A DNA stretch of 64,000 nucleotides from Candidatus Poribacteria bacterium (GCA_965205015.1 OZ242029.1:2304001-2368000), one strand, 5' to 3'; positions 2,414 through 46,478 are shown, numbered from the stretch's first letter. Made by a program: numbers and translations. Notes: a model not told the origin generated them from the letters alone.

Positions 2414-3550
2414 ATGGAGCGTAGAGATTTTTTGCGGCAGAGCGGTTTAACGCTTACCGGGTTGCTGCTCAGCCCGTGGGCGGTCTACGCCTTCCCGAGT
2501 CGTGAAGGTGAAGTGCTTATTCCATTTACCGATCAGCCACCGGAACCGCCTTCAAAGCGCGGTTTACTGGATTGGGACGCGCTCGATTCCTTTATCACAC
2601 CGAACGCTGAATTCTTCAACGTTTCACATTACGGCAAACCTGAGGTAGACCTCGCGACGTGGAAGCTGGAAGTAAGTGGCTTGGTTGAAAACCCGCTGAT
2701 GTTCACGATTGAGGACATCAAAGCACGTCCCCGACAGGAGGTGACCTTTACGCTGGAATGCTCCGGTAACCACGGATTTCCAACGTTCACTGGTGGTATT
2801 GGCAACGCGAAATGGGCAGGGACACCCCTCGCACCGATTCTCAAAGAAGCCGGTATCCGAGAAAACGGCATTGAGGTCATCTTCTTCGGACACGATGTCG
2901 GGGAAGAGGAACGGCGTAAAGTGAAAATGCGTCAGAATTTCGCCCGAAGCATGTCCGTTGAAGACGCACTACAGGACACAAATCTCCTCTGCTATGAGAT
3001 GAACGGTGAACCGTTACCACACGCAAATGGGGCACCCTTGCGTCTGATCGCTCCCGGTTGGTATGGGATTGCCTGTGTCAAGTGGCTCAAACGCATTGAG
3101 GTGCGCGATACCCGGTACATGGGACGGTTCATGGGACGCGATTATGTCACGATACGCGAGGAGAAACGTCCGGATGGTGAATCGGTGTGGATGGAGACTT
3201 CGGTGGGTAGAACAAAGTTGAAATCGTTAGCGGCGAAGGTAACCCGTATCGGCGATAAATACCGTATCTACGGAGCCGCGTGGGGTGCTCCGATCCAAAC
3301 GGTTGAAGTGAGCATTGACGGAGGCGCATGGCAAAAGGCGACGATAGACTCGGAGGAGGACGCTGAATTCGCGTGGAAAATCTGGCATCTCGACTGGAAC
3401 AGCCCGTCGAAGGGGGAACACACCGTCGTCTCCAGAGCCATTGATACGATGGGAAACATCCAACCCGCGGGTGATTCCGACTACATTACTGGAAAGCACA
3501 CCTATTGGGAGAGCAACGGTCAGGTTATCCGCCGAGTCAATATTGAATAG
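2414..3550 (+). CDS. Sulfite oxidase family molybdoenzyme (SorA/SoxC-like) with Tat signal
   Basis: MERRDFL leader, TLECSGN Mo-ligand Cys, GNAKWAG, NGEPLPHANGAPLRLIAPGWYG, VKWL, C-terminal dimerisation domain. Confidence 0.9.
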   Translation: MERRDFLRQSGLTLTGLLLSPWAVYAFPSREGEVLIPFTDQPPEPPSKRGLLDWDALDSFITPNAEFFNVSHYGKPEVDLATWKLEVSGLVENPLMFTIEDIKARPRQEVTFTLECSGNHGFPTFTGGIGNAKWAGTPLAPILKEAGIRENGIEVIFFGHDVGEEERRKVKMRQNFARSMSVEDALQDTNLLCYEMNGEPLPHANGAPLRLIAPGWYGIACVKWLKRIEVRDTRYMGRFMGRDYVTIREEKRPDGESVWMETSVGRTKLKSLAAKVTRIGDKYRIYGAAWGAPIQTVEVSIDGGAWQKATIDSEEDAEFAWKIWHLDWNSPSKGEHTVVSRAIDTMGNIQPAGDSDYITGKHTYWESNGQVIRRVNIE

Positions 3551-3569
3551 AAGACTTTATGGAGATTGT

Positions 3570-4349
3570 ATGCACATAACCGATGTACAAAAACAGCAAT
3601 TCCAAGAGGAAGGCTATTTCATTTTAGAGAATGTGATCCCAGAACCGCTGCTGGAACTGCTCCGCGGTGAATGCGGAACCTTTATCGATCAGATGGATGC
3701 CGATATGGACCGGCAGGACACGGATGTCCTCGGCATCAATCATCGCAACAAACGCTATTTCGTCTCAAACTGCTTCAGGAAACAGCCGAAACTTCGCGAA
3801 TTCCTATTCAGCGATTTAATGGCGGAAGTCTGCCGTGCCACCTTAGGCGAGACGGCGTACCTTTTCTGGGAACAGTATGTCGTCAAAGGCGCAGAAGCCG
3901 GGATGAAGTTCAGCTGGCACCAGGATTCAGGCTACGTCGGTTATCCTGACCATAAGCCGTATCTTACCTGTTGGTGCGCACTCGATGATATGTCCGAAGA
4001 GAACGGCACCGTCTACGTGATGCCATTTTCGAGTATCGGCATCCGTTCATGGGTGAAGCATATCCGTGAAGCGGGAAGCAACGATATGGTGGGTTATTTC
4101 GGACCGGAAAAAGGGGTACCTGCGATTGTGCCTGCGGGCAGCATTGTCGCCTTCACGAGTATCAATTTCCACTCCAGCGGCACAAACTACACGCCCAACC
4201 TGCGGCGTGCGTATCTTGCGCAGTATTCAGCGGAACCGCTCCTTTCACACGACGGGAGTCGGTTGTGGGGCAATGCAGAGCCATTGTTGCGGGATGGAAA
4301 GTCTGTTGTCGGGGAACCACCACCGGATATTACGTCGCGGTTTGATTGA
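3570..4349 (+). CDS. Phytanoyl-CoA dioxygenase (PhyH) family Fe(II)/2OG dioxygenase
   Basis: FQEEGYFILENV, WHQD, WCALDD..EENG, distal H in FHSSG..N; GGAG RBS. Confidence 0.9.
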   Translation: MHITDVQKQQFQEEGYFILENVIPEPLLELLRGECGTFIDQMDADMDRQDTDVLGINHRNKRYFVSNCFRKQPKLREFLFSDLMAEVCRATLGETAYLFWEQYVVKGAEAGMKFSWHQDSGYVGYPDHKPYLTCWCALDDMSEENGTVYVMPFSSIGIRSWVKHIREAGSNDMVGYFGPEKGVPAIVPAGSIVAFTSINFHSSGTNYTPNLRRAYLAQYSAEPLLSHDGSRLWGNAEPLLRDGKSVVGEPPPDITSRFD

Positions 4350-4401: not shown

Positions 4402-6621
4402 TCACTCAGTGTTATCAAGTTCTTGAAGCGATTGCTCTATCTCAGCTTTAAGGTCTTGATTGTCCGTATCTTCTGCCAATTCCAAGGCTTTCTGGAAATC
4501 CGCTTTTGCTGCCTGATCTCTGCCTAGGAGAGCGTTTGCTTTGCCTCGGGTATCATATGCTTCGGCATAATTCGGACTTAGGCGGAGGGCTTCGGTACAG
4601 TCAGTAATAGCATTCTCATATTCGCTCAGTAAGATTTTGGCAATCCCGCGGTTACGATAGGCATAGATATCATCGGGATTTAACTGGATAGCCTTATTAA
4701 GATCAGCAATAGCAGCCTCATATTCCCCTAATTTACTTTTATCAATGCCTCGGTTATGGTAGGCATGGGCATCATTTGAATTAATCTTAATAGCCTCGCT
4801 ATAATCTTGGATGGCAGCCTCATGTCTTCCTAACTGCCCCTTCACATATCCACGATTATAATAAGTAACAGCATCCGGATTTAATTGGATAGTCTTGTTG
4901 TAGTCAGCAATAGCAGCCTCATATTCCCCTAGTTCACGCTTTGCGTCCGCCCTGTCTTTGTAGGCTTGTGCCAAAGTGGGGTTAACCTTAATGGCCTCGT
5001 CATAGTCAGCAATAGCCTTTATGTATCGCCCTATGGTGCTTTTCACATTGCCACGAAGGATATAGGCAAGATCTATATGATTTAGAGAACGATCAGATTT
5101 AATCTGGATAGCTTTATCAAGATCATCAATCGCAGTTTCATATTGACCTCTTATGAATTTTACACCCCCTCGCATGGTGTAGGCAAAGCCTATATGGTTT
5201 ACAGCAGGATCAGGTTTTAGCCGAATGGCTTGGTCGATATCTACAATAGCAGCGTCGTATTGTTTCCTCGTGAACTGTGCTATTCCTCGTATAAGGTAGG
5301 CATAGGGAGCGTCTACTTTGAGTTGAATGCTCTTATCAAAATCAGCAAGTGCAGCTTCAAACATATTTTCGCCGAGTTTGCTAAGTCCTCGCCTAAAGTA
5401 AGCGTCCGCGTCATCTGATTTATGGCGTATTACTTCGTCATAGTCAGCGACAGCAGCCTCATGTAGACCTAATGCAGCCCTCGCGTGTCCACGCATAACA
5501 TAAGTTGCAACATCACTTGGATTGTGCCGGAGAGCTTCGTTAAAATCACCAATAGCCTCTTCATATTCTTTGCGGGCATTCCTTGCACCACCGCGAGCGG
5601 TGTAAGCAAGATAGATGGAAGGATCATCCAAATTTAATCGGAGGGCTTCATCAGCATCAGCAATAGCAGTCTCATATTGACCCAGTAATCTATTTATACC
5701 ACTGCGAATGAGATAAGCGAAGTAAACACAAACTTCATCTGAATCCAATTGGATAACTTTGTCAAAATCAGCAATAGCAGCCTCATATTGACTCAGCGTG
5801 CACTTTACATTGGCGAGCTTAAGATAGGCATAAGGATCAGCTGGGTTAATCCGAATGGCTTCATTGAAGTCAGCAACCGCGGATTCATACTGCCCAAGCG
5901 AGTATTTTGCCTCGCCACAGTAATAGTAGGTTTCAGCAGAATCAGGTTTTAGCCCAATTGATTGATGGTAAGCGAGAATTGCTTCTTCTTTTTTATCTCC
6001 TGCGAAAAGAGAGTTACCGATGGAGAAAAATGCCTCCGCTGCGAGCACGTTGAGGGGTTTTTCCGGCAACCCGGTAGGATTATCGTGTCGATCCTCATTT
6101 TTTATGTTGTCTGGATTTGTGCCTTCTGTTAGTTCAGGAAACAGATCTGTCAATTTTGGAAAGTGCTCGTTCTCATATTCCGTGATAAGAATACCGATGA
6201 AATCCATTAATGGTGCCAAGGGATGCTTTTCATCGTCACCGACGACATAGATTAACTCTTTCAATACCGTATCAAGTTGTTTGTAGTCGGTTTCGGTTAG
6301 TGTAGTGAAGCTGTTATTTGCATTCCGATTCGCTATATCGGTTAACTCTTCAAGGACCTCTACAAGCCATTGGTAGTCGCTTTCCGGATATGAAGCGGAT
6401 TCAACCTGTTGCTGTACTGATGCTTGCACCGGTTCGGAAAATAATATGGGAATTTCAGGAGCGTTCTCCCACATCAGTGTTTGTAGATGTTCAGAACTGA
6501 ATTCAGCAATTGTTTGCTTTTGGAGGAACGCACTAATGTCTGTTTTCTCAAATAGGACATTAAGTCCCAAAGAAATTGGTGTTGGTGATACATTTTGTGT
6601 AGGAGATTTTTCAATTAACAT
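4402..6621 (-). CDS. HigA-type antitoxin N-terminal domain fused to 15 TPR repeats, no HTH
   Basis: aa ~107-155 TETDYKQLDTVLKELIYVVGDDEKHPLAPLMDFIGILITEYENEHFP resembles HigA N-termini. 15 TPR units counted from aa ~195. Starts 3 bp after the higB stop. Confidence 0.8.
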   Translation of the reverse strand: MLIEKSPTQNVSPTPISLGLNVLFEKTDISAFLQKQTIAEFSSEHLQTLMWENAPEIPILFSEPVQASVQQQVESASYPESDYQWLVEVLEELTDIANRNANNSFTTLTETDYKQLDTVLKELIYVVGDDEKHPLAPLMDFIGILITEYENEHFPKLTDLFPELTEGTNPDNIKNEDRHDNPTGLPEKPLNVLAAEAFFSIGNSLFAGDKKEEAILAYHQSIGLKPDSAETYYYCGEAKYSLGQYESAVADFNEAIRINPADPYAYLKLANVKCTLSQYEAAIADFDKVIQLDSDEVCVYFAYLIRSGINRLLGQYETAIADADEALRLNLDDPSIYLAYTARGGARNARKEYEEAIGDFNEALRHNPSDVATYVMRGHARAALGLHEAAVADYDEVIRHKSDDADAYFRRGLSKLGENMFEAALADFDKSIQLKVDAPYAYLIRGIAQFTRKQYDAAIVDIDQAIRLKPDPAVNHIGFAYTMRGGVKFIRGQYETAIDDLDKAIQIKSDRSLNHIDLAYILRGNVKSTIGRYIKAIADYDEAIKVNPTLAQAYKDRADAKRELGEYEAAIADYNKTIQLNPDAVTYYNRGYVKGQLGRHEAAIQDYSEAIKINSNDAHAYHNRGIDKSKLGEYEAAIADLNKAIQLNPDDIYAYRNRGIAKILLSEYENAITDCTEALRLSPNYAEAYDTRGKANALLGRDQAAKADFQKALELAEDTDNQDLKAEIEQSLQELDNTE

Positions 6622-6624
6622 GGT

Positions 6625-6945
6625 TTACCTTCTCCAATTTCCTGTATCATACTCATCGTGCGTTAGCACCTGATCGATAATCACAACCTGCTTCGTGTAT
6701 TGTACAACCGCAATGAGACGGGCATCGTTGCCACTAATATTGAAAACCGTTAGTGTTACCGATTCGCGATTAAATCTTCGGGGTTGTACCTTCACCGGTG
6801 AAACGCGTCCGAACGTTTCACGCAGGTCAATAATTGACTTAAAACTTCCTTCTCTTATCACTTGAGCCCAATGGTTGAGGGAGGCACGAGTATTCGGATG
6901 TCGCTTTGCAAATTTCGCTAACTCATTTTCTCTAACAATTCGCAT
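6625..6945 (-). CDS. higB: HigB family mRNA interferase toxin
   Basis: MRIV...L.KFAKRHP...L.HW, VFNISGNDARLIAVVQY, VLTHDEYD.G.W. Confidence 0.9.
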   Translation of the reverse strand: MRIVRENELAKFAKRHPNTRASLNHWAQVIREGSFKSIIDLRETFGRVSPVKVQPRRFNRESVTLTVFNISGNDARLIAVVQYTKQVVIIDQVLTHDEYDTGNWRR

Positions 6946-7076
6946 AAAAGGGCCGTGTAGTGTGTTTGTTGAATTAAGGACTGCGTATGTTTTTGAAATA
7001 CCAGCAGAGGAACCGCCGGCACGGCCGATAGTAAAATTACATTATCTTATTCGATCTGTCCCTCAAGACCGCTAAT

Positions 7077-7105
7077 ATTATACCACGTGAAAATCTATAT
7101 GACAA
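7077..7105 (-). promoter_or_regulatory. Sigma70-type promoter of the higB operon
   Basis: Minus strand TTGTCA-17 bp-TATAAT with an extended TG. Confidence 0.6.
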
Positions 7106-7143
7106 AAGAATTGCGTTGATAGAGCAGCACCCTTAAGTTGTTT

Positions 7144-8436
7144 CTATTGGTCTGGCGCGAGTTTACCGCTAACGTTACTAACCGAATGACGACTAAATCC
7201 GGTCAGATAATCCCCAATCTTATCTTGAAGACTTCGTGCAAGTCTTGCTGGACCGATATAATGACTGATGAGGATACCGAACGCGAACACCTCATCGTCT
7301 GCTGTCACGGTGTAGCCAGCCAGCGCAGATACCCCGCTCAACGTCCCTGTCTTCGCACGTAGGACCTTTTCGGCGGACATCCCTTGCATCCGATTTTTCA
7401 AGGTGCCATCAACACCCGCAATCGGCAGCGATGCCAGAAACTCCGGCATCACCTCGAAATTGTGATACATATAGACGAGCAACTTCGTGAGCAATTCGGC
7501 ATTGAGAAGGTTGTATCGAGAGAGTCCAGAACCGTCAACGAACCGGTGTATCGGCGGCTCGTCCATGATTTCTGCTAAAAACCCACCGACAACGTCTCTC
7601 CCCTTTTTCCATGTCCCCGGTTCACTGATAACTTCAGCACCGATCGTTTTGAAAAGCAATTCGGCGGTCCAGTTGTCACTCGGTTTGTTCATCAACTTGA
7701 GGATGTCGGCGAGCGGCGGTGATAGATGCTTGCCGACCCGATGTGCATCTGGGGGCACTGTTCCTTGAACGACATCACCCATTACGTGAACGCCTTTTTC
7801 CATGAGCGCAGTTTTCAAGAGGTGTCCACAGGCGAGTGCCCTGCTCATTTTGTTCGCATCGGGTTCGACTTCTCGGATACTCAAAGCACTGATCCACAGC
7901 GGTCTATCGTCCCACATCCACCCTGGACCTTCCCAAATGGCATCGAGGTATGTGTCATCAACGACGATGTGATCCTGTATCGACTTGACACCCATTTGAA
8001 GCAGGGCATCTGTCAATTTTACAATGTCTTGAGGGCGGAGCACCGGATCAGCCCTGCCTTTTAGATAGATATTTCCTACGACGGCACCCTTCACAATGGT
8101 ATCCGCATAGAGTGTTGTCTCAAATTGATAGTCCGATCCCAATTTCGCTAAGGCAGTCGCTGCGGTGAAGAGTTTTGTTGTAGAGGCGGGATGGTGCAAC
8201 TTGTGGCTGTTTTTTTCGTAAATCACTTCCTCTGTTTCAACGGCAACAACCTTGATGCCGATGCTTGCAGTTGTGAACAAAACTTCCTCCAAGACGGCAT
8301 CGATATCGGTGTGTAGTTTTTTGAGCGGGTCTACAACGGGTGTCGGTGGTGCGGTTTGAATCGGCGTGGTAGTGAATATCCCACACCCTGAGAGCAACAC
8401 CGCACCGCAAAATAGAAAAATAGCAAAGGTCTTCAT
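7144..8436 (-). CDS. dacB: D-alanyl-D-alanine carboxypeptidase/endopeptidase PBP4 (peptidase S13), lipoprotein
   Basis: PASTTK (SxxK), SDN, KTGTL and DGSGLSR motifs; LSGC lipobox. Confidence 0.93.
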   Translation of the reverse strand: MKTFAIFLFCGAVLLSGCGIFTTTPIQTAPPTPVVDPLKKLHTDIDAVLEEVLFTTASIGIKVVAVETEEVIYEKNSHKLHHPASTTKLFTAATALAKLGSDYQFETTLYADTIVKGAVVGNIYLKGRADPVLRPQDIVKLTDALLQMGVKSIQDHIVVDDTYLDAIWEGPGWMWDDRPLWISALSIREVEPDANKMSRALACGHLLKTALMEKGVHVMGDVVQGTVPPDAHRVGKHLSPPLADILKLMNKPSDNWTAELLFKTIGAEVISEPGTWKKGRDVVGGFLAEIMDEPPIHRFVDGSGLSRYNLLNAELLTKLLVYMYHNFEVMPEFLASLPIAGVDGTLKNRMQGMSAEKVLRAKTGTLSGVSALAGYTVTADDEVFAFGILISHYIGPARLARSLQDKIGDYLTGFSRHSVSNVSGKLAPDQ

Positions 8437-41623: not shown

Positions 41624-41905
41624 TTAATAGATATCACCACGATTATCAATTTGAACAATGCGAATTACCCGTCTGTCTCTATCAACTCGGTAAACGAAAC
41701 GAATATCCCCGATGCGATAGCGATAACGTTCTTTTGTTCTGCCGCGCAATCGCCTGATTGTCATAGGGTTTTCGTGATGAAAAGGAGAGTGGGTGATATA
41801 TTCAAAAGCGGCATTAATTCGTTCCCGTGTTTTTTGATCTCGCCGCTTAATAAAATTTTCAACCTTTCTTGGAAGAGGCTCAAGCGTGAAGGGCTGGTGA
41901 TTCAC
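41624..41905 (-). CDS. RelE/ParE family toxin
   Basis: IRRLRG...YRYRIGDIRFVYRV...IDNRGDIY. Confidence 0.9.
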   Translation of the reverse strand: MNHQPFTLEPLPRKVENFIKRRDQKTRERINAAFEYITHSPFHHENPMTIRRLRGRTKERYRYRIGDIRFVYRVDRDRRVIRIVQIDNRGDIY

Positions 41906-42231
41906 AGCCCAATCTCCTTCTTAATCTGAGACCACGGTTTTCCGCCGCCAGCATCTAATTCCTGTTCTGCCTCAGCAATATCTGCCAGGACCTCTGGTTC
42001 TGAATTGATGAGTGCTGTTTCGCGCCAATCCGCAAGAAAAACCGAAAACGTTTCGCGATATTTTTTTTCTTCTGAGGTGTGTGTTAGCAGTTCAAGCAAT
42101 TCCTCGAAAAACTCAACAAGTTCCTCGGGATCCAACCATTTAAGCCACTCAAGGGACTTTGAAATCGGAACAGATTTGACGAACAATTGATCATTCATGA
42201 GGTGTCCAACGACAAGTTTGGGCTTTTTCAT
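41902..42231 (-). CDS. Putative cognate antitoxin
   Basis: Acidic; WRETALI.SEPEVLADIAEAEQEL..G...WSQIKKEIGL RelB/Phd-like tail; GTGA overlap with relE. Confidence 0.8.
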   Translation of the reverse strand: MKKPKLVVGHLMNDQLFVKSVPISKSLEWLKWLDPEELVEFFEELLELLTHTSEEKKYRETFSVFLADWRETALINSEPEVLADIAEAEQELDAGGGKPWSQIKKEIGL

Positions 42232-42398: not shown

Positions 42399-45300
42399 TT
42401 ATGCGTTACTTGTACGAAGTCCTAACGAACAAACAATCTGCGGTTCTCGCGTTTGCCGCTCTTCCTCAATAATGCAAAGCCGATCCGTTTCCCATAAATC
42501 AATTACCAATTCTGCAAGAGCTTCGTTGGAAATACTGCTGCGGAGTTGACGGTTGAGAGTATCAGTTGCTGTCTGCCGCAGCGGATACCGGTAAATAGCT
42601 TCAATGACCTGTTTAAGTTGAGGCGTGTTAAGTAGCGTTCCTTCGACCTCTGAGGCGTAATCCTTCAGGCGTTCATAAGTGCGGAACCGTGCCCCTGATG
42701 GGCGTCCGAGTTGTCCGCCACTCGTCCGTTCTTCAGAGACAATCAACTTTGCGGCTTCTTCCACAAGGCGGTGATGTTCTTCGAGCGGTGAGAGTGCCTC
42801 AGTCTTCGGTTGGCACGCTGCAGCTTGGAGAATCGCAAACTGGGATTCGGTTACGCTTTGACCGTCTTGATCTATCCATGCCAGCGCGTCGTTTTCCTGT
42901 CCCGTTCGGATGTAGACCAGCGCGCCTTCGGGTTCGTTATCGGTTAGCGTATGCGGTTGGGTTGAATAGACGACAGAGGAGAGTGCAGGAACAATTTTTT
43001 CTAAATTCGGATCTTGCGTAATGGCGTTTTTCCAAATCTGGTAGGCATGAGAGGCGAGGTCAACATCGTTATCCCGTTCATCGTCAAGCAAGCCTGCCTC
43101 CTCATTATAGAGATTAACAATCGTCTGATTGCCTTCCTCACCGTCGTCTTCAAAAAAGGCTTCGTCCGTGCCGACAACCTCTGCGTTCTGGCGAAGGCGC
43201 GCACGGACGCGTCCGCGTAAGTTAATGATGCGCTCCACGCCTTCGGCGGGTAGGAACGAATAGCACAAAATGTCTTCTGACATCTGACCAATCCGGTCAA
43301 CCCGACCTGCACGCTGCACCAAGCGTATGATTGCCCATGGCAGATCGTAGTTGACAACAATTGAACAGTCCTGCAAATTTTGTCCCTCACTCAGGACATC
43401 TGTACTAATGAGCACCCGCAATTCGTCTGCCCGATTAATTCTATCCCGTTTATTGTTGCTGATAGGACTAAAGCGATGTGCTAAGGCGGTGGGATCTGCC
43501 GAATCGCCAGTCGCTGGAGCGATTTGTGTCATCCCGCGTTCTGAGAGGACATCTGTGAGATACTGCACTGTATCCGCGAATTGTGTGAAGACTAAGACCT
43601 TATCGTCCGGATGTGTCTGGATTAGCAGTTCTTGAAGGGCATTGAGTTTTGCGTCTTGTTCGGGGTTCCATGTGCCGTATTGCTGCAGGATCTCAGTGAG
43701 TGCGAGCGCGTCACCAGTAAGGTCTTTCCGTAGCACGGACAAAAAGAGATTTGGACGCAGCCACTTAAACCTGCTTTTATACTTTGTCCTGTAGAGTCGA
43801 TAGATAGCAGCGGCGCGTTGTTTGTAGCCGTCGTCCGTGTATTGCCGAGATTGTGAGTCGGTATTATCAATCTGTGTGTCATCTTCATCACCAGAAGCAT
43901 CTAAGATAACGGTGGCGTCCTCGGTATCTCTGTCTTCAAACCGAGAATCGAGCATCTCGGCGTTCTGGGATCCGATCGGCAGCGGTTCATCGTTTTCAAG
44001 GGCGTGAAGGAAGATATAATTCCGTAGGATATGCCGATCAACGGATTGAATGAACGCTTGTCCACTGCTTTCGAGTCGTTTGAAAAGATTCGTTCGGCAA
44101 AATCCCATCAATCGTTGTCCCCCACGGGAGAGGTCTTCTAACTGCTGCTGCTCTGTTTCCGTCGGTGGCTCCGATGGTGCGTCAACAATGTAGTTTGCAA
44201 GTCCATACCGAGCCAACTTGAGACTGCTAATCACGTTCACAACAGAAGCAGAGTATAGTTGTGCGTAGGTATCGTCTGGATTTTGATCGTCAATTTCAAA
44301 CTGTATTGTTTTTGGCACGCGCGTAGGAAAGTAGGATCGCGTGCCGTCAGGAAAGGAGAGGAATTTCCGCTGTGTCTCAGGATCCGTGTCGGCGTAATTT
44401 TCCGTGATGAAACTTCGCGTGCGACGCACAAGATACCGGCGCATCAACTCACGCCAGTCGTCAATATACTCACTGTGTTCAAACGCTGAAAGCGTCCGGA
44501 CTCCGCTTTGGTGTTTACGGATAAACTCGGTTTCACTGCCTAACTTCTTGATGTATTGCTCTGGTCGAATGCCGAGATCCTCGGTTTCATCAACAAAAAG
44601 GCGGAGTTGATTAGAGAGATCGAGATAGGTTTTGTTATAGGGGGTCGCGGAGAGGAGGATGACCTTGCTCTCGTTTTGTTGGATATAGTCCTGAATGGCG
44701 CGGTAACGTTTGCCTTCACGGTTTCTGAGATTATGGCTTTCATCAATCATGACGAGGCGATAGCGTCGGAGATCGGGCAATTCGTTAAGCACTCGGCTAA
44801 TTGAGAGCACCCTTCCCCGTAGGCGATATTCCTCTCGATAGTCTTCCCACATATTAACGAGATTCTTCGGACAGATAATCAGTGTTTCAAGGTCGTAATC
44901 GTCTTCCTGTATGCGCGCCAGTGCCGTCCCCATGAGCGTTTTGCCGAGTCCGACGACATCCCCTATGAGCACACCCCCGCGTCTGTTGAGATGATGCGCT
45001 GCGATTTTCACGGCAGCCGTTTGGAATTCAAAGAGTTTGTCCTCAAATTCGCGTGGAATCTGAAATTCAGTCAACCCAGCGCGTGCTTCCTGTGAGAGGT
45101 GATACGCCATTTTGATATAAATGTGATATGGGGGGATGCGTTCCTCACGCGCCCAACTCTGCTCGATAATTTCAATCAATTCCTTAGAAATGTCGATGCA
45201 CCATCTGTCATTCCACCGGTCTTCAAACCAATCCTCTAACTTATCACAAGAATCTGAGTCAACAACATCAATGTTGAGTTCTGCCTGATGTGACAGCCCA

Positions 45301-45797
45301 GAAAGCGTCAAATTGCTACTGCCGAGGTAACCCACAGTCGGCGCGACGAGGTCAGAACGATAGATTAAATAGAGTTTCGCATGGAGCGTATGTCGCAGAA
45401 AGAGTTTTACCTTTACTTTCTCGTCACGAAGTTGTTGTGCCAACTGACGCAATCCTATTTCATCCGCACGCGTCGGCACACCGACAGTCAGTTGTTCTCG
45501 AAATTCCTCTGCCAATCTCCGTTTCAAACGGAGTGCGGTTTGGTTGTCGATTCTGCCGTCCTGCTTCGCGAGTCTCTTGGCATGCCGGAGTTCTTCATTT
45601 GGCAAGCGTTGCATGCCGACAAGTAAGCGGCAGCATTCGTCTGCACCGCCATCCCAATTCTCAACGTAAGATGCGAGTCCTCTCCAGCCACGAAGATTGA
45701 AATAGCCGACACAAAAGTCGGCATGTGTAGCGGTTTCAAGTGTCTGTTGGAGTGCAGGAAGTAGCGGTTGGTCGATATTATCGAAGATACGGGGCAT
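42399..45797 (-). CDS. PLD (HxK) nuclease + SNF2-type SF2 helicase
   Basis: [21 protein letters not shown]; [40 protein letters not shown]. Confidence 0.93.
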
Positions 45798-46478
45798 TTA
45801 GAATGATGTCTCCTCGTCGTCCTCGTCATCCATATCCATTCCGAGGTAAAGTCCCATGGGAGCGAGACCTGCTTTGACTTTTTGGAGTGATCCCATCCCG
45901 AAATGATTGATCTGTAGTAGTTCTGATTCCGTTTTTTCGACGAGTGCTCGTAAGGTATAGATGTTTTCCCTTTCGAGGCAATTGTGGGCTCGGGTCGGGA
46001 GTCTGAGTGCAGTGATAGAGAGAGTTAAGTAATCATCCCGCTCCTGTTCCGTCACATCAGCGATCTCCGGTTCCCTGTAGATGTTAGGGAACAGTGGGTC
46101 CCGTTCATCTTGGACATCGATAATATTTACCCAAGGTGAATCCAACTCCTGTTCTGCCTCAGTCATATCTGACAAGACATCGCTTTCTGGATGGAGCAAA
46201 ACTCTTTGGAGCAAAGGAGGGAGAGATTCCCAAATCCTCGCGTAATCCTCCGATTCTAATGCGGTTTCACGCCAATGGTCCAGAAAGGTCCGAAGCGTCT
46301 CGCTATCTTCCTTTCCCTCTGAAATCTGTGCTATCAATTCAAATAATCCCTCAAAAAACGGAACAAGTTCTTCGACCACTAACGAGCTGATCCAATTGAG
46401 GGGTTTTGAAATCTTAACAGATTTCACGAGCATTTCGTCTTCAATAAGGTATCCAACGACAAGTTTAGCCTTTTTCAT
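45798..46478 (-). CDS. Antitoxin paralogue fused to an RNA polymerase alpha C-terminal domain
   Basis: N-terminus aligns with 41902-42231. C-terminus LRLPTRAHNCLERENIYTLRALVEKTESELLQINHFGMGSLQKVKAGL.MGLYLGM matches the alphaCTD pattern. Confidence 0.85.
   Translation of the reverse strand: MKKAKLVVGYLIEDEMLVKSVKISKPLNWISSLVVEELVPFFEGLFELIAQISEGKEDSETLRTFLDHWRETALESEDYARIWESLPPLLQRVLLHPESDVLSDMTEAEQELDSPWVNIIDVQDERDPLFPNIYREPEIADVTEQERDDYLTLSITALRLPTRAHNCLERENIYTLRALVEKTESELLQINHFGMGSLQKVKAGLAPMGLYLGMDMDDEDDEETSF

Follow-up and report, generated by a model that had tools for sequence, protein, structure and literature searches.

We analysed a 64,000-nucleotide window of the genome of a Candidatus Poribacteria bacterium (GCA_965205015.1 OZ242029.1:2304001-2368000), in which positions 4402 to 6945 hold two adjacent genes on the minus strand: higB, encoding a HigB-family toxin, and a gene encoding a long partner protein with a HigA-like N-terminal segment and an array of tetratricopeptide repeats (TPRs). 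The higB gene spans 6625-6945 (-) including its TAA stop codon (6625-6627) and encodes 106 amino acids, and the partner open reading frame (ORF) spans 4402-6621 (-), its ATG ending at 6621, and encodes 739 amino acids. Read from the sequence, 3 nucleotides (6622..6624, -) separate the stop codon of higB from the start codon of the partner, and the identical gap is present in the related loci L002-L010. A purine-rich, Shine-Dalgarno-like GGAGAAGG lies within the 3' end of higB, 6 nucleotides ahead of the partner ATG, and the start of partner translation is probably coupled to translation of higB. The ORF coordinates and the HigB family match bear out an earlier annotation of this DNA, made by a model from the sequence alone (hereafter the first-pass annotation), which had described a toxin-first operon with 3-bp spacing.

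HigB was placed in the RelE-like family of ribosome-dependent mRNA interferases by matches to Pfam, PDB and PADLOC entries. It matched Pfam PF09907 (HigB_toxin) with an E value of 1.2e-19 and 70.8 bits (cutoff 27) over model positions 2-73 of 74, and its best solved relatives were the E. coli/Shigella HigB chains 5ycl_B and 5ifg_A (phmmer, 1.6e-6). All columns that are invariant or near-invariant among 26-28 HigB family members are retained in the window HigB, and the C-terminal T-H-x-E-Y-D stretch is common to it and E. coli HigB. HigB thus belongs to the E. coli K-12-type HigB family, from which ribosome-dependent mRNA cleavage and toxicity would be expected of it. An inserted loop (window HigB residues ~52-62) is present in the HigBs paired with long partners (alignment A4), whose ORFs are 101-135 amino acids long except for one of 85 (L053). 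The HigBs paired with bare partners or with partners bearing a helix-turn-helix (HTH) are 63-97 amino acids long and, like E. coli HigB, are without the loop.

HigB also matched the PADLOC models for component A of PD-lambda-2 (PD-Lambda-2_A, 1e-17), which favors an alternative in which the locus is not an ordinary working toxin-antitoxin pair, either because HigB is inactive or because the roles are reversed; in PD-lambda-2, toxicity came from the second component by itself and was relieved by component A (PMC9519451). However, the window partner is without a peptidase or other enzyme domain, carrying only TPRs, and HigB keeps the conserved columns of its family, including the T-H-x-E-Y-D stretch, and is under strong purifying selection. 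We consider an inactive HigB or reversed roles very improbable.

The partner comprises five parts, all on the minus strand: a leader (residues 1-75, 6397..6621), a partial and degenerate copy of the first helix of the core (residues 76-99, 6325..6396), a core resembling the HigA N-terminal domain and predicted by homology and modelling to bear the HigB-binding surface (residues 100-165, 6127..6324), a flexible linker (residues 166-190, 6052..6126) and 15 TPRs with a C-terminal cap helix, forming a solenoid (residues 191-739, 4405..6051). The leader was modelled as low-confidence helices, with a predicted local distance difference test (pLDDT) score of 25-35, and the linker had a pLDDT below 50. 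The leader is missing, by deletion, from the orphan copy L013. The extreme N-terminus of the partner (M-L-T-x-x-x-x-[TP]-[QK]-N-[VI] onward) recurs in paralogous partner families (P0025, P0028, P0032, P0037, P0046 and L027), and this recurring leader could be a degradation tag or an extra contact with HigB.

Direct detection did not assign the HigA-like segment, as partner residues 1-200 had no match in Pfam, NCBIfam or the PDB, and no Pfam or NCBIfam model covered the core domain in that scan. Searches with the partner returned no match in a phage collection and no usable hit in a protein atlas. Three independent routes led to HigA. By the first, a phmmer search of 1.84 billion proteins with residues 1-185 returned 305 hits, 57 of them at 1e-10 or below, including a protein (P0092; 1.1e-8, query residues 98-156) that is a full-length canonical HigA with its C-terminal HTH (E. 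coli HigA by BLASTP, 2e-18; PDB 5ifg_B, 1e-9). By the second, a hidden Markov model (HMM) built from residues 70-170 of 15 TPR-fused proteins only, searched with Z set to 1e6, matched the N-terminal domains (N-terminal 60 residues) of five Poribacteria proteins of 135-148 amino acids at 8.4e-7 to 4.7e-5; in a small local database the same five aligned with positions 17-137 of E. coli HigA, with E values of 1.5e-12 to 3.1e-15. By the third, tblastn of residues 66-170 against 72,556 plasmids matched 46 records, mostly from Acinetobacter and Leptospira, at 7e-6 to 2e-5. These matches fall on features annotated as 'helix-turn-helix domain-containing protein' or 'Antitoxin HigA'; on the A. baumannii plasmid CP042210.1 the match (1e-5) covers residues 25-70 of an annotated 'Antitoxin HigA' adjoining an 'mRNA interferase HigB'. 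An hhalign comparison of the fusion alignment with the single E. coli HigA placed residues 134-152 on HigA 45-63, but only at E 0.055-0.085, and did not detect HigA directly. On sequence grounds, homology to K-12-type HigA extends over partner residues ~76-165 and concerns its N-terminal domain, not its HTH. The HigA-like segment of the first-pass annotation was reached through two-step links and a direct tblastn match to annotated HigA, not by direct Pfam, NCBIfam or PDB matches.

The degenerate partial copy described by the same annotation was also recovered. Residues 73-99 fell on the same profile positions as residues 108-134 (8.0 bits, single-sequence E 1.2e-4), only 1 of 2000 shuffles reached the self-alignment score, and the core profile matches twice in many relatives. 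A domain model made with a deeper alignment showed a three-helix bundle, with helices at residues 80-99, 110-127 and 136-153 and a pLDDT of 81, rising to about 90 in 110-127 and 136-153. As had been claimed, the partner lacks an HTH: no HTH family in Pfam or NCBIfam matched residues 1-200 at E values up to 10, and residues 190-739 are occupied by TPRs.

The C-terminal array matched Pfam TPR_1 in 15 stretches (E 6.9e-90). The AlphaFold2 model contained 15 helix pairs over residues 190-718, followed by a cap helix to residue 736, with pLDDT mostly above 90, in agreement with the 15 TPRs originally counted. A TPR motif scan found 14 in-register units spaced 33-39 residues apart. The repeats depart little from a generic TPR pattern, and the matches in Pfam, NCBIfam and PADLOC were to generic TPR families only. 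No NTPase family appeared among the best 25 of 33 Pfam families and the best 25 of 36 NCBIfam families matched by the 739-residue protein, residues 1-200 of which matched nothing. The partner gene is without tandem repeats at the DNA level, and recent repeat expansion was dropped as an explanation of the array. Among 5 orthologues, the change between orthologues was 0.41 at TPR positions 2, 5, 9, 12, 13, 33 and 34, which we take to be the usual ligand-facing positions, versus 0.26 elsewhere. Diversity among the 14 repeats of the protein itself was greatest at positions 2, 5, 6, 9, 12 and 13.

To examine the predicted complex, HigB was modelled with partner residues 66-170, using our own alignments of 26 rows for HigB and 37 rows for the partner. 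The interface score (ipSAE) was 0.78 (0.78, 0.81 and 0.77 in the individual runs), and the best of 3 controls scored 0.01. The models contained 87-90 contacts, at least 91% of them common between runs, and the partner pLDDT was 75-78. Among 157 solved complexes 116 reach the score mark used, whereas among 215 mismatched pairs only 2 do; these counts are only approximate here because own alignments were used. On the partner side, the predicted interface consists of the conserved core (residues 117-164) and partial-copy residues 78, 82 and 85; on the HigB side, it consists of the N-terminal helix, the inserted loop (53-59, with residues 53 and 55-59 contributing) and strands 63-66 and 80-91. This modelling, which the first-pass annotation had proposed, supports binding of HigB to the HigA-like segment, with the reservation that a similar complex has already been solved.

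We investigated the conservation of the pair in a one-genome-per-species scan with the closer alignment A1, which found 18 related loci; the titles of 17 name Candidatus or uncultured Poribacteria, and that of the remaining locus is 'uncultured bacterium'. Ten of the 18 are of the window type (L002-L010 and L013), and most of these keep the same neighbourhood of a penicillin-binding protein 4 (PBP4)-type carboxypeptidase, higB, the fusion, PhyH and a molybdopterin oxidoreductase; L005 had no PBP4 match, and at L009 none of the three flanking genes was matched. Identity to the window is 73-76% for PBP4, 85-93% for HigB, 75-85% for the core, 55-76% for the leader and 87-92% for PhyH; it is 24-52% for the linker and 43-71% for the TPR array in its best segment. 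The window-type partners are 440-739 amino acids long, indicating that the number of repeats varies. Ratios of nonsynonymous to synonymous substitution rates (dN/dS) were calculated pairwise with 7 window-type loci out of 13 available, omitting L006-L010 and L013, where arrays are shorter or higB is broken or missing. They were 0.09-0.23 for HigB, 0.08-0.18 for the core, 0.29-0.63 for the leader (residues 1-75), 0.54-1.07 for the linker and 0.12-0.32 for the TPR array (549 codons). These values indicate that the toxin, the core and the array are each under purifying selection and that the linker is near neutral. The pair is inherited vertically on the chromosome at a conserved housekeeping locus.

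At some window-type loci higB has decayed while the TPR ORF stays open. In L008 (3677-3997), codon 28 of higB is an in-frame stop, and the 489-residue TPR ORF is open; in L007 (3677-3997), the 5' end of higB is lost or replaced, and a 447-residue TPR ORF is open. In L013 (2659-6076), the whole of higB and the first ~65 residues of the partner are deleted, and the PBP4 gene abuts an open partner ORF of 721 amino acids. HigB remnants of 77 amino acids also recur in the protein database (P0201 and P0202). Decay of higB fits either a HigB-independent role of the TPR protein or simple toxin-first decay.

The first of these possibilities corresponds to a view in which the TPR protein mainly does other work, such as host interaction or cytoplasmic scaffolding, and HigB with the HigA-like domain is an often-lost appendage that stabilises or tunes the gene. 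Besides the three decayed loci, vertical inheritance among housekeeping genes is in keeping with this view, as is a 354-residue TPR form (L026) with no higB found within 1.5 kb. TPRs are, moreover, the most frequent repeat domains of Poribacteria and have been discussed as belonging to eukaryote-like host-interaction proteins (PMC3909097). However, conservation within the pair is strongest in HigB and the HigA-like core, whose dN/dS is 0.08-0.23. Furthermore, of 20 long partners sampled from the wider family (3 of which coincide with places among the 18 related loci), 19 directly follow a higB, the exception lying ~740 nucleotides from a contig end. Since the antitoxin part is N-terminal, a stop within the array would free no toxin, which leaves the pair unable to force the array to be kept. 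An antitoxin must be cytoplasmic, and loss of the toxin first is the expected path of decay for any toxin-antitoxin pair. No hydrophobic, signal-like N-terminus was seen on inspection by eye, and a secreted host-interaction protein was dropped as a candidate for that reason. We regard a main role of the TPR protein in other work as improbable.

We then considered the wider family. The core domain was found in 99 of 120 sampled Poribacteria genomes at 1e-5, with 363 matches in total; among the 150 matches listed of these 363, 50 lie in open frames of at least 280 amino acids. Relatives at 18 loci and a core present in most sampled genomes of the phylum agree with the lineage-wide fusion that had been suggested. 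Five Poribacteria genomes carry 24 core copies (3-6 per genome), 15 of which adjoin higB, and higB is directly upstream in 12 of the 18 related loci. Among the 149 best representative hits, 27 have TPRs, and the remaining ones are without a Pfam model for the core. In each of the genomes G001 (L025 and L030) and G004 (L024 and L031), two TPR-fused pairs belong to different HigB lineages, and the HigBs of these pairs are only ~45-50% identical to the window HigB. Half of the 20 sampled long partners are 558-810 amino acids long, and all ten contain 7-13 TPR-like motifs by motif scan; the four run through Pfam show TPR arrays. The other ten belong to a class of ~360 amino acids, and the three of them run through Pfam show one TPR each.

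This second fused class (L044-L053, e.g. L046:2503-3933 and L051:2381-3820) comprises a HigB of 113-135 amino acids followed by the ~360-residue partner, in which a HigA-like N-terminal domain and about one TPR precede a C-terminal part. In L051 the C-terminal part has a weak match to HSDR_N_2, the N-terminus of the type I restriction R protein (8.2e-6); at 1e-5 this family was absent from the other two ~360-residue partners scanned. The partner accordingly occurs in four forms: bare (75-106 amino acids), with an HTH (135-148), with one TPR and another domain (~360) and with TPR arrays (284-810). The C-terminal slot of the partner behaves as a variable module that is empty or holds an HTH, a TPR with a weak HSDR_N_2 match, or an array.

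Several further arrangements of the domain were observed. Bare HigA-like N-terminal domain proteins of 60-106 amino acids, with neither HTH nor TPR, lie directly after higB where the context is known (L019:3725-4333, L028, L032, L035 and L020; P0094, P0121 and many others); they are unnamed or called 'hypothetical protein' in their sources and are not confined to Poribacteria, one example coming from an Anaerolineales metagenome-assembled genome. Orphan genes for the N-terminal domain only, 108-160 amino acids long and without higB, are found at L015-L018 (e.g. L016:3983-4363 and L018:3977-4354) and adjoin a 642-residue DUF6785/DUF6784 membrane protein. The orphans of L016 and L018 are followed by restriction-modification genes, namely an N6_N4 methylase with HNH and an HSDR_N_2 protein with an N6 methylase/Eco57I. 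Single ORFs that start HigB-like and continue as a HigA-like core were also seen (P0035, P0079, P0093, P0117, P0122 and L041:1312-1683, the last matching both HigB and core profiles); these may be remnants of frameshifted or fused pairs, or merged gene calls.

The bare forms bear on how the array arose and on what it is for. The first-pass annotation had the TPRs standing in place of the HTH, which is correct as a description of the architecture but passes over the fact that bare HTH-less forms of 75-106 amino acids are common. Given how common these are, the array may have been added onto a partner form that had already lost the HTH. The bare forms also bear on an alternative in which the pair is a real toxin-antitoxin pair and the array senses nothing, instead replacing the HTH as a module for oligomerisation, solubility or stability, with HigB freed by proteolysis or dilution. 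The K-12-type HigBA tetramer is joined via HigA only, with the HTH at the C-terminus (PMC7984235, PMC6987408). That tetramer's dependence on HigA makes a substitute for lost dimerisation plausible. The near-generic repeats with only generic family matches, the purifying mean selection, the housekeeping context and the stable synteny fit such a module as well. However, the bare forms, with no HTH or TPR, adjoin higB, which implies that a working pair of this family needs no added module. Fifteen repeats, partners of 284-810 amino acids and several arrays per genome exceed what dimerisation needs, and constraint across 549 codons exceeds what a spacer needs. We therefore think a non-sensing array rather unlikely.

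The pair is flanked by genes for a patatin, superoxide dismutase, molybdopterin oxidoreductase, PhyH, a PBP4-type carboxypeptidase, a citramalate/isopropylmalate-type synthase and an epimerase. The PhyH-family dioxygenase gene (3441-4349, +) lies downstream of the partner and is convergent with it; phyH is the most abundant domain family in Poribacteria single-cell genomes (PMC3909097). A consensus scan found a promoter-like site 5' of higB (7077..7105, -; TTGTCA, 17 nucleotides, TG-TATAAT; 11 of 12 matches), which is a candidate only, since the region holds 4 promoter-like sites versus 6.5 expected in shuffles. No operator-like inverted repeat was present upstream of higB in 6900-7160, and the sequence-feature scan found no terminator-like site at the locus. 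Three sponge metatranscriptome runs from one study gave only short contigs, 90-95% alike, which align with stretches of higB (6653-6757), of the core (6108-6261) and of the array (e.g. 4988-5191). These contigs are sequences of relatives in RNA libraries and are no evidence of transcription or co-transcription of this copy.

Two other gene pairs were noted in the window. A 226-residue protein with an RNA polymerase alpha-subunit C-terminal domain (alpha-CTD; 8e-17), encoded at 45798-46478 (-), directly precedes a 1132-residue phospholipase D (PLD) and SNF2 helicase protein that matches PADLOC HKD+Snf2 at 1.8e-55 and a DrmD-like model at 1.2e-33. The alpha-CTD gene had been called an antitoxin 40 kb away and a parallel to the TPR fusion; this parallel finds no support, the gene preceding a PLD and SNF2 helicase and no recognisable toxin. 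The two genes (42399-46478, -) resemble a candidate defence system of two genes rather than a toxin-antitoxin pair. At 41624-42231 (-), a gene for a ParE-family toxin (93 amino acids, 9.3e-6) overlaps by 4 nucleotides an upstream ORF of 109 amino acids that had no family match, and the two are probably a ParDE-like pair.

Taken together, the evidence makes it very probable that the higB locus is a real toxin-antitoxin pair in which HigB is neutralised through the N-terminal domain of the partner. We hold the full statement, that the TPR array of this pair gates HigB upon ligand binding, as the first-pass annotation had also proposed, more tentatively, with doubt slightly outweighing confidence. 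By this mechanism, HigB would be made first from a chromosomal, vertically inherited two-gene operon of a Poribacteria sponge symbiont, and the three-helix HigA-like domain (residues ~76-165) would bind it and keep it inactive. A loose tether of ~25 residues would join this domain to the 15-TPR solenoid, which would be the input domain and bind a protein ligand that might come from a phage, from the cell itself or from the host. Ligand binding would alter the availability of the tethered domain by release, sequestration or turnover, and the freed HigB would cut mRNA on the ribosome, leading to growth arrest. Since the C-terminal HTH, which in canonical HigA provides DNA binding and dimerisation, is absent, the partner should be unable to repress its own promoter, and we infer that autoregulation by the partner was lost. 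The 549 constrained codons, the varying repeat number, the paralogous arrays, the variation at exposed positions and the existence of other C-terminal modules are compatible with an input role of the array. Precedents are offered by PD-lambda-2, in which a HigB-like protein acts together with a multi-domain HigA-like partner (PMC9519451), and by CapRel SJ46, whose antitoxin domain is the phage sensor (10.1101/2023.12.08.570793).

Several observations weigh against ligand-gated neutralisation by a HigA-like partner. With regard to the HigA-like domain, a 45-sequence core profile found no HigA among solved structures, its best match (0.062) being noise. HigA chains took ranks 1-5 in a Foldseek search of 350,542 chains with E values of only 0.9-2.0, and in VIA-align HigA chains (Z 4.3-4.7) fell below unrelated helical bundles (Z 5-6). 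The best local VIA-align fit was to 6kmq_B, with a root-mean-square deviation of 2.5 A over 52 residues (model 41-98 on chain 23-76). Because the fold comparisons do not separate HigA from unrelated bundles, the case for HigA-likeness rests on sequence. The E. coli HigBA complex has been solved, and the interface score may therefore reflect likeness to it, not binding by this copy. With regard to sensing, residues 1-186 had a pLDDT of 25-57 in the whole-protein model and showed no docking on the solenoid; the variable TPR positions include ordinary exposed ones (16, 18, 19, 22, 25 and 29), and the mean dN/dS of the array reflects purifying rather than diversifying selection. In addition, 3 of the 10 window-type loci have a disrupted or missing higB but a TPR ORF that is still open, the locus is not a defence island, having housekeeping neighbours and conserved synteny, and the organism is uncultured.

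What triggers chromosomal toxin-antitoxin pairs is a long-standing question, and the few solved cases, among them an antitoxin domain that senses a capsid protein, suggest that the signal enters at the antitoxin. The family described here is a natural one in which a protein-recognition array sits exactly where the canonical antitoxin has its DNA-binding domain, in many lengths and with several paralogues per genome. The HigA N-terminal domain would be a portable toxin-binding cassette that is used on its own, next to an HTH or joined to other C-terminal modules, and some of the abundant 'eukaryote-like' TPR proteins of Poribacteria would be toxin-antitoxin components, a point of interest for sponge microbiology. 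It is a doubtful generalisation that the TPR-array antitoxins of Poribacteria are stand-alone protein sensors that work without an NTPase or a third gene, each recognising one particular protein of a phage, the sponge host or a symbiont and holding its own HigB on a flexible tether. If true, a symbiont cell would carry a small panel of receptor-plus-brake pairs that halt translation on specific cues, and some 'eukaryote-like' TPR proteins would be receptors for immunity or growth control and not host-manipulation factors.

Among known systems, the E. coli K-12 HigB-HigA pair (YgjN-YgjM; PDB 5IFG, 5YCL and 6KML) has the same PF09907 toxin family and toxin-first order as the window pair. Work by Yang et al. 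in 2016 is said to have identified the N-terminal domain of K-12 HigA as the part that contacts HigB. The K-12 genes (L001; higA 5729-6145, higB 6142-6456) overlap by 4 nucleotides, whereas a 3-nucleotide gap separates the genes in the window. K-12 HigA and the window partner appear, from their sequences, to share the N-terminal helical domain. K-12 HigA is a protein of 138 amino acids with a C-terminal DNA-binding HTH, and its complex is described as a tetramer formed via HigA only (PMC7984235, PMC6987408). In contrast, the window partner is missing the HTH and has gained the partial helix copy, the 75-residue leader, the linker and the 15 TPRs. Because the C-terminal HTH is absent, the partner carries a HigA N-terminal domain and is not a full K-12-type HigA member.

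PD-lambda-2 (Vassallo et al. 2022), a validated abortive-infection anti-phage system of E. coli (PMC9519451), likewise has a HigB-like first gene followed by a multi-domain HigA-derived partner. Its partner keeps an Xre HTH and carries a peptidase, a third, P4-antitoxin-like gene is needed, and the toxin and antidote roles were reversed in the assay. Unlike PD-lambda-2, the window locus has two genes, no HTH and no peptidase; only component A matches PADLOC, and the partner is followed by the convergent PhyH gene and no third PD-lambda-2 component. Toxin-antitoxin-chaperone systems (HigBA-SecB type; CmdTAC) resemble the window pair in that a C-terminal extension of a HigA-like antitoxin ties its stability to another protein (PMC9519451). 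In those systems the extension is a short unstructured stretch that depends on a third, SecB-like gene, whereas the window partner has a folded TPR solenoid and no conserved third gene.

Another likeness is in manner of working only. CapRel SJ46 is a fused toxin-antitoxin whose antitoxin domain itself senses a phage capsid protein (10.1101/2023.12.08.570793), and the window partner may work similarly, as an antitoxin element doubling as trigger sensor. It differs in that CapRel SJ46 has a tRNA pyrophosphokinase toxin, is a single polypeptide without TPRs and senses through the antitoxin domain. The sponge-symbiont eukaryote-like TPR proteins come from the same phylum and have the same repeat type as the window array. 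Those are discussed as host-interaction candidates, many with signal peptides or membrane helices (PMC3909097), whereas the window's TPRs are joined to an antitoxin domain after a toxin gene. The word 'toxin' never occurs in that single-cell paper, which reports TPRs as the most frequent repeat domains (PMC3909097). A HigA-TPR or other TPR-fused antitoxin was likewise not described in any title or abstract found.

In Avs proteins, which are STAND NTPases, long TPR arrays recognise phage proteins and switch on an effector. The parallel with Avs sensors drawn in the first-pass annotation holds for the presence of TPRs but not for membership: no NTPase or oligomerisation module was among the best-scoring families of the window partner, its effector is a separate small protein held by an antitoxin domain, and any likeness would be one of working. 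As far as we found previously undescribed, the window pair instead descends from K-12-type HigBA and would work like it, as a HigB followed by a TPR-fused HigA N-terminal domain protein.

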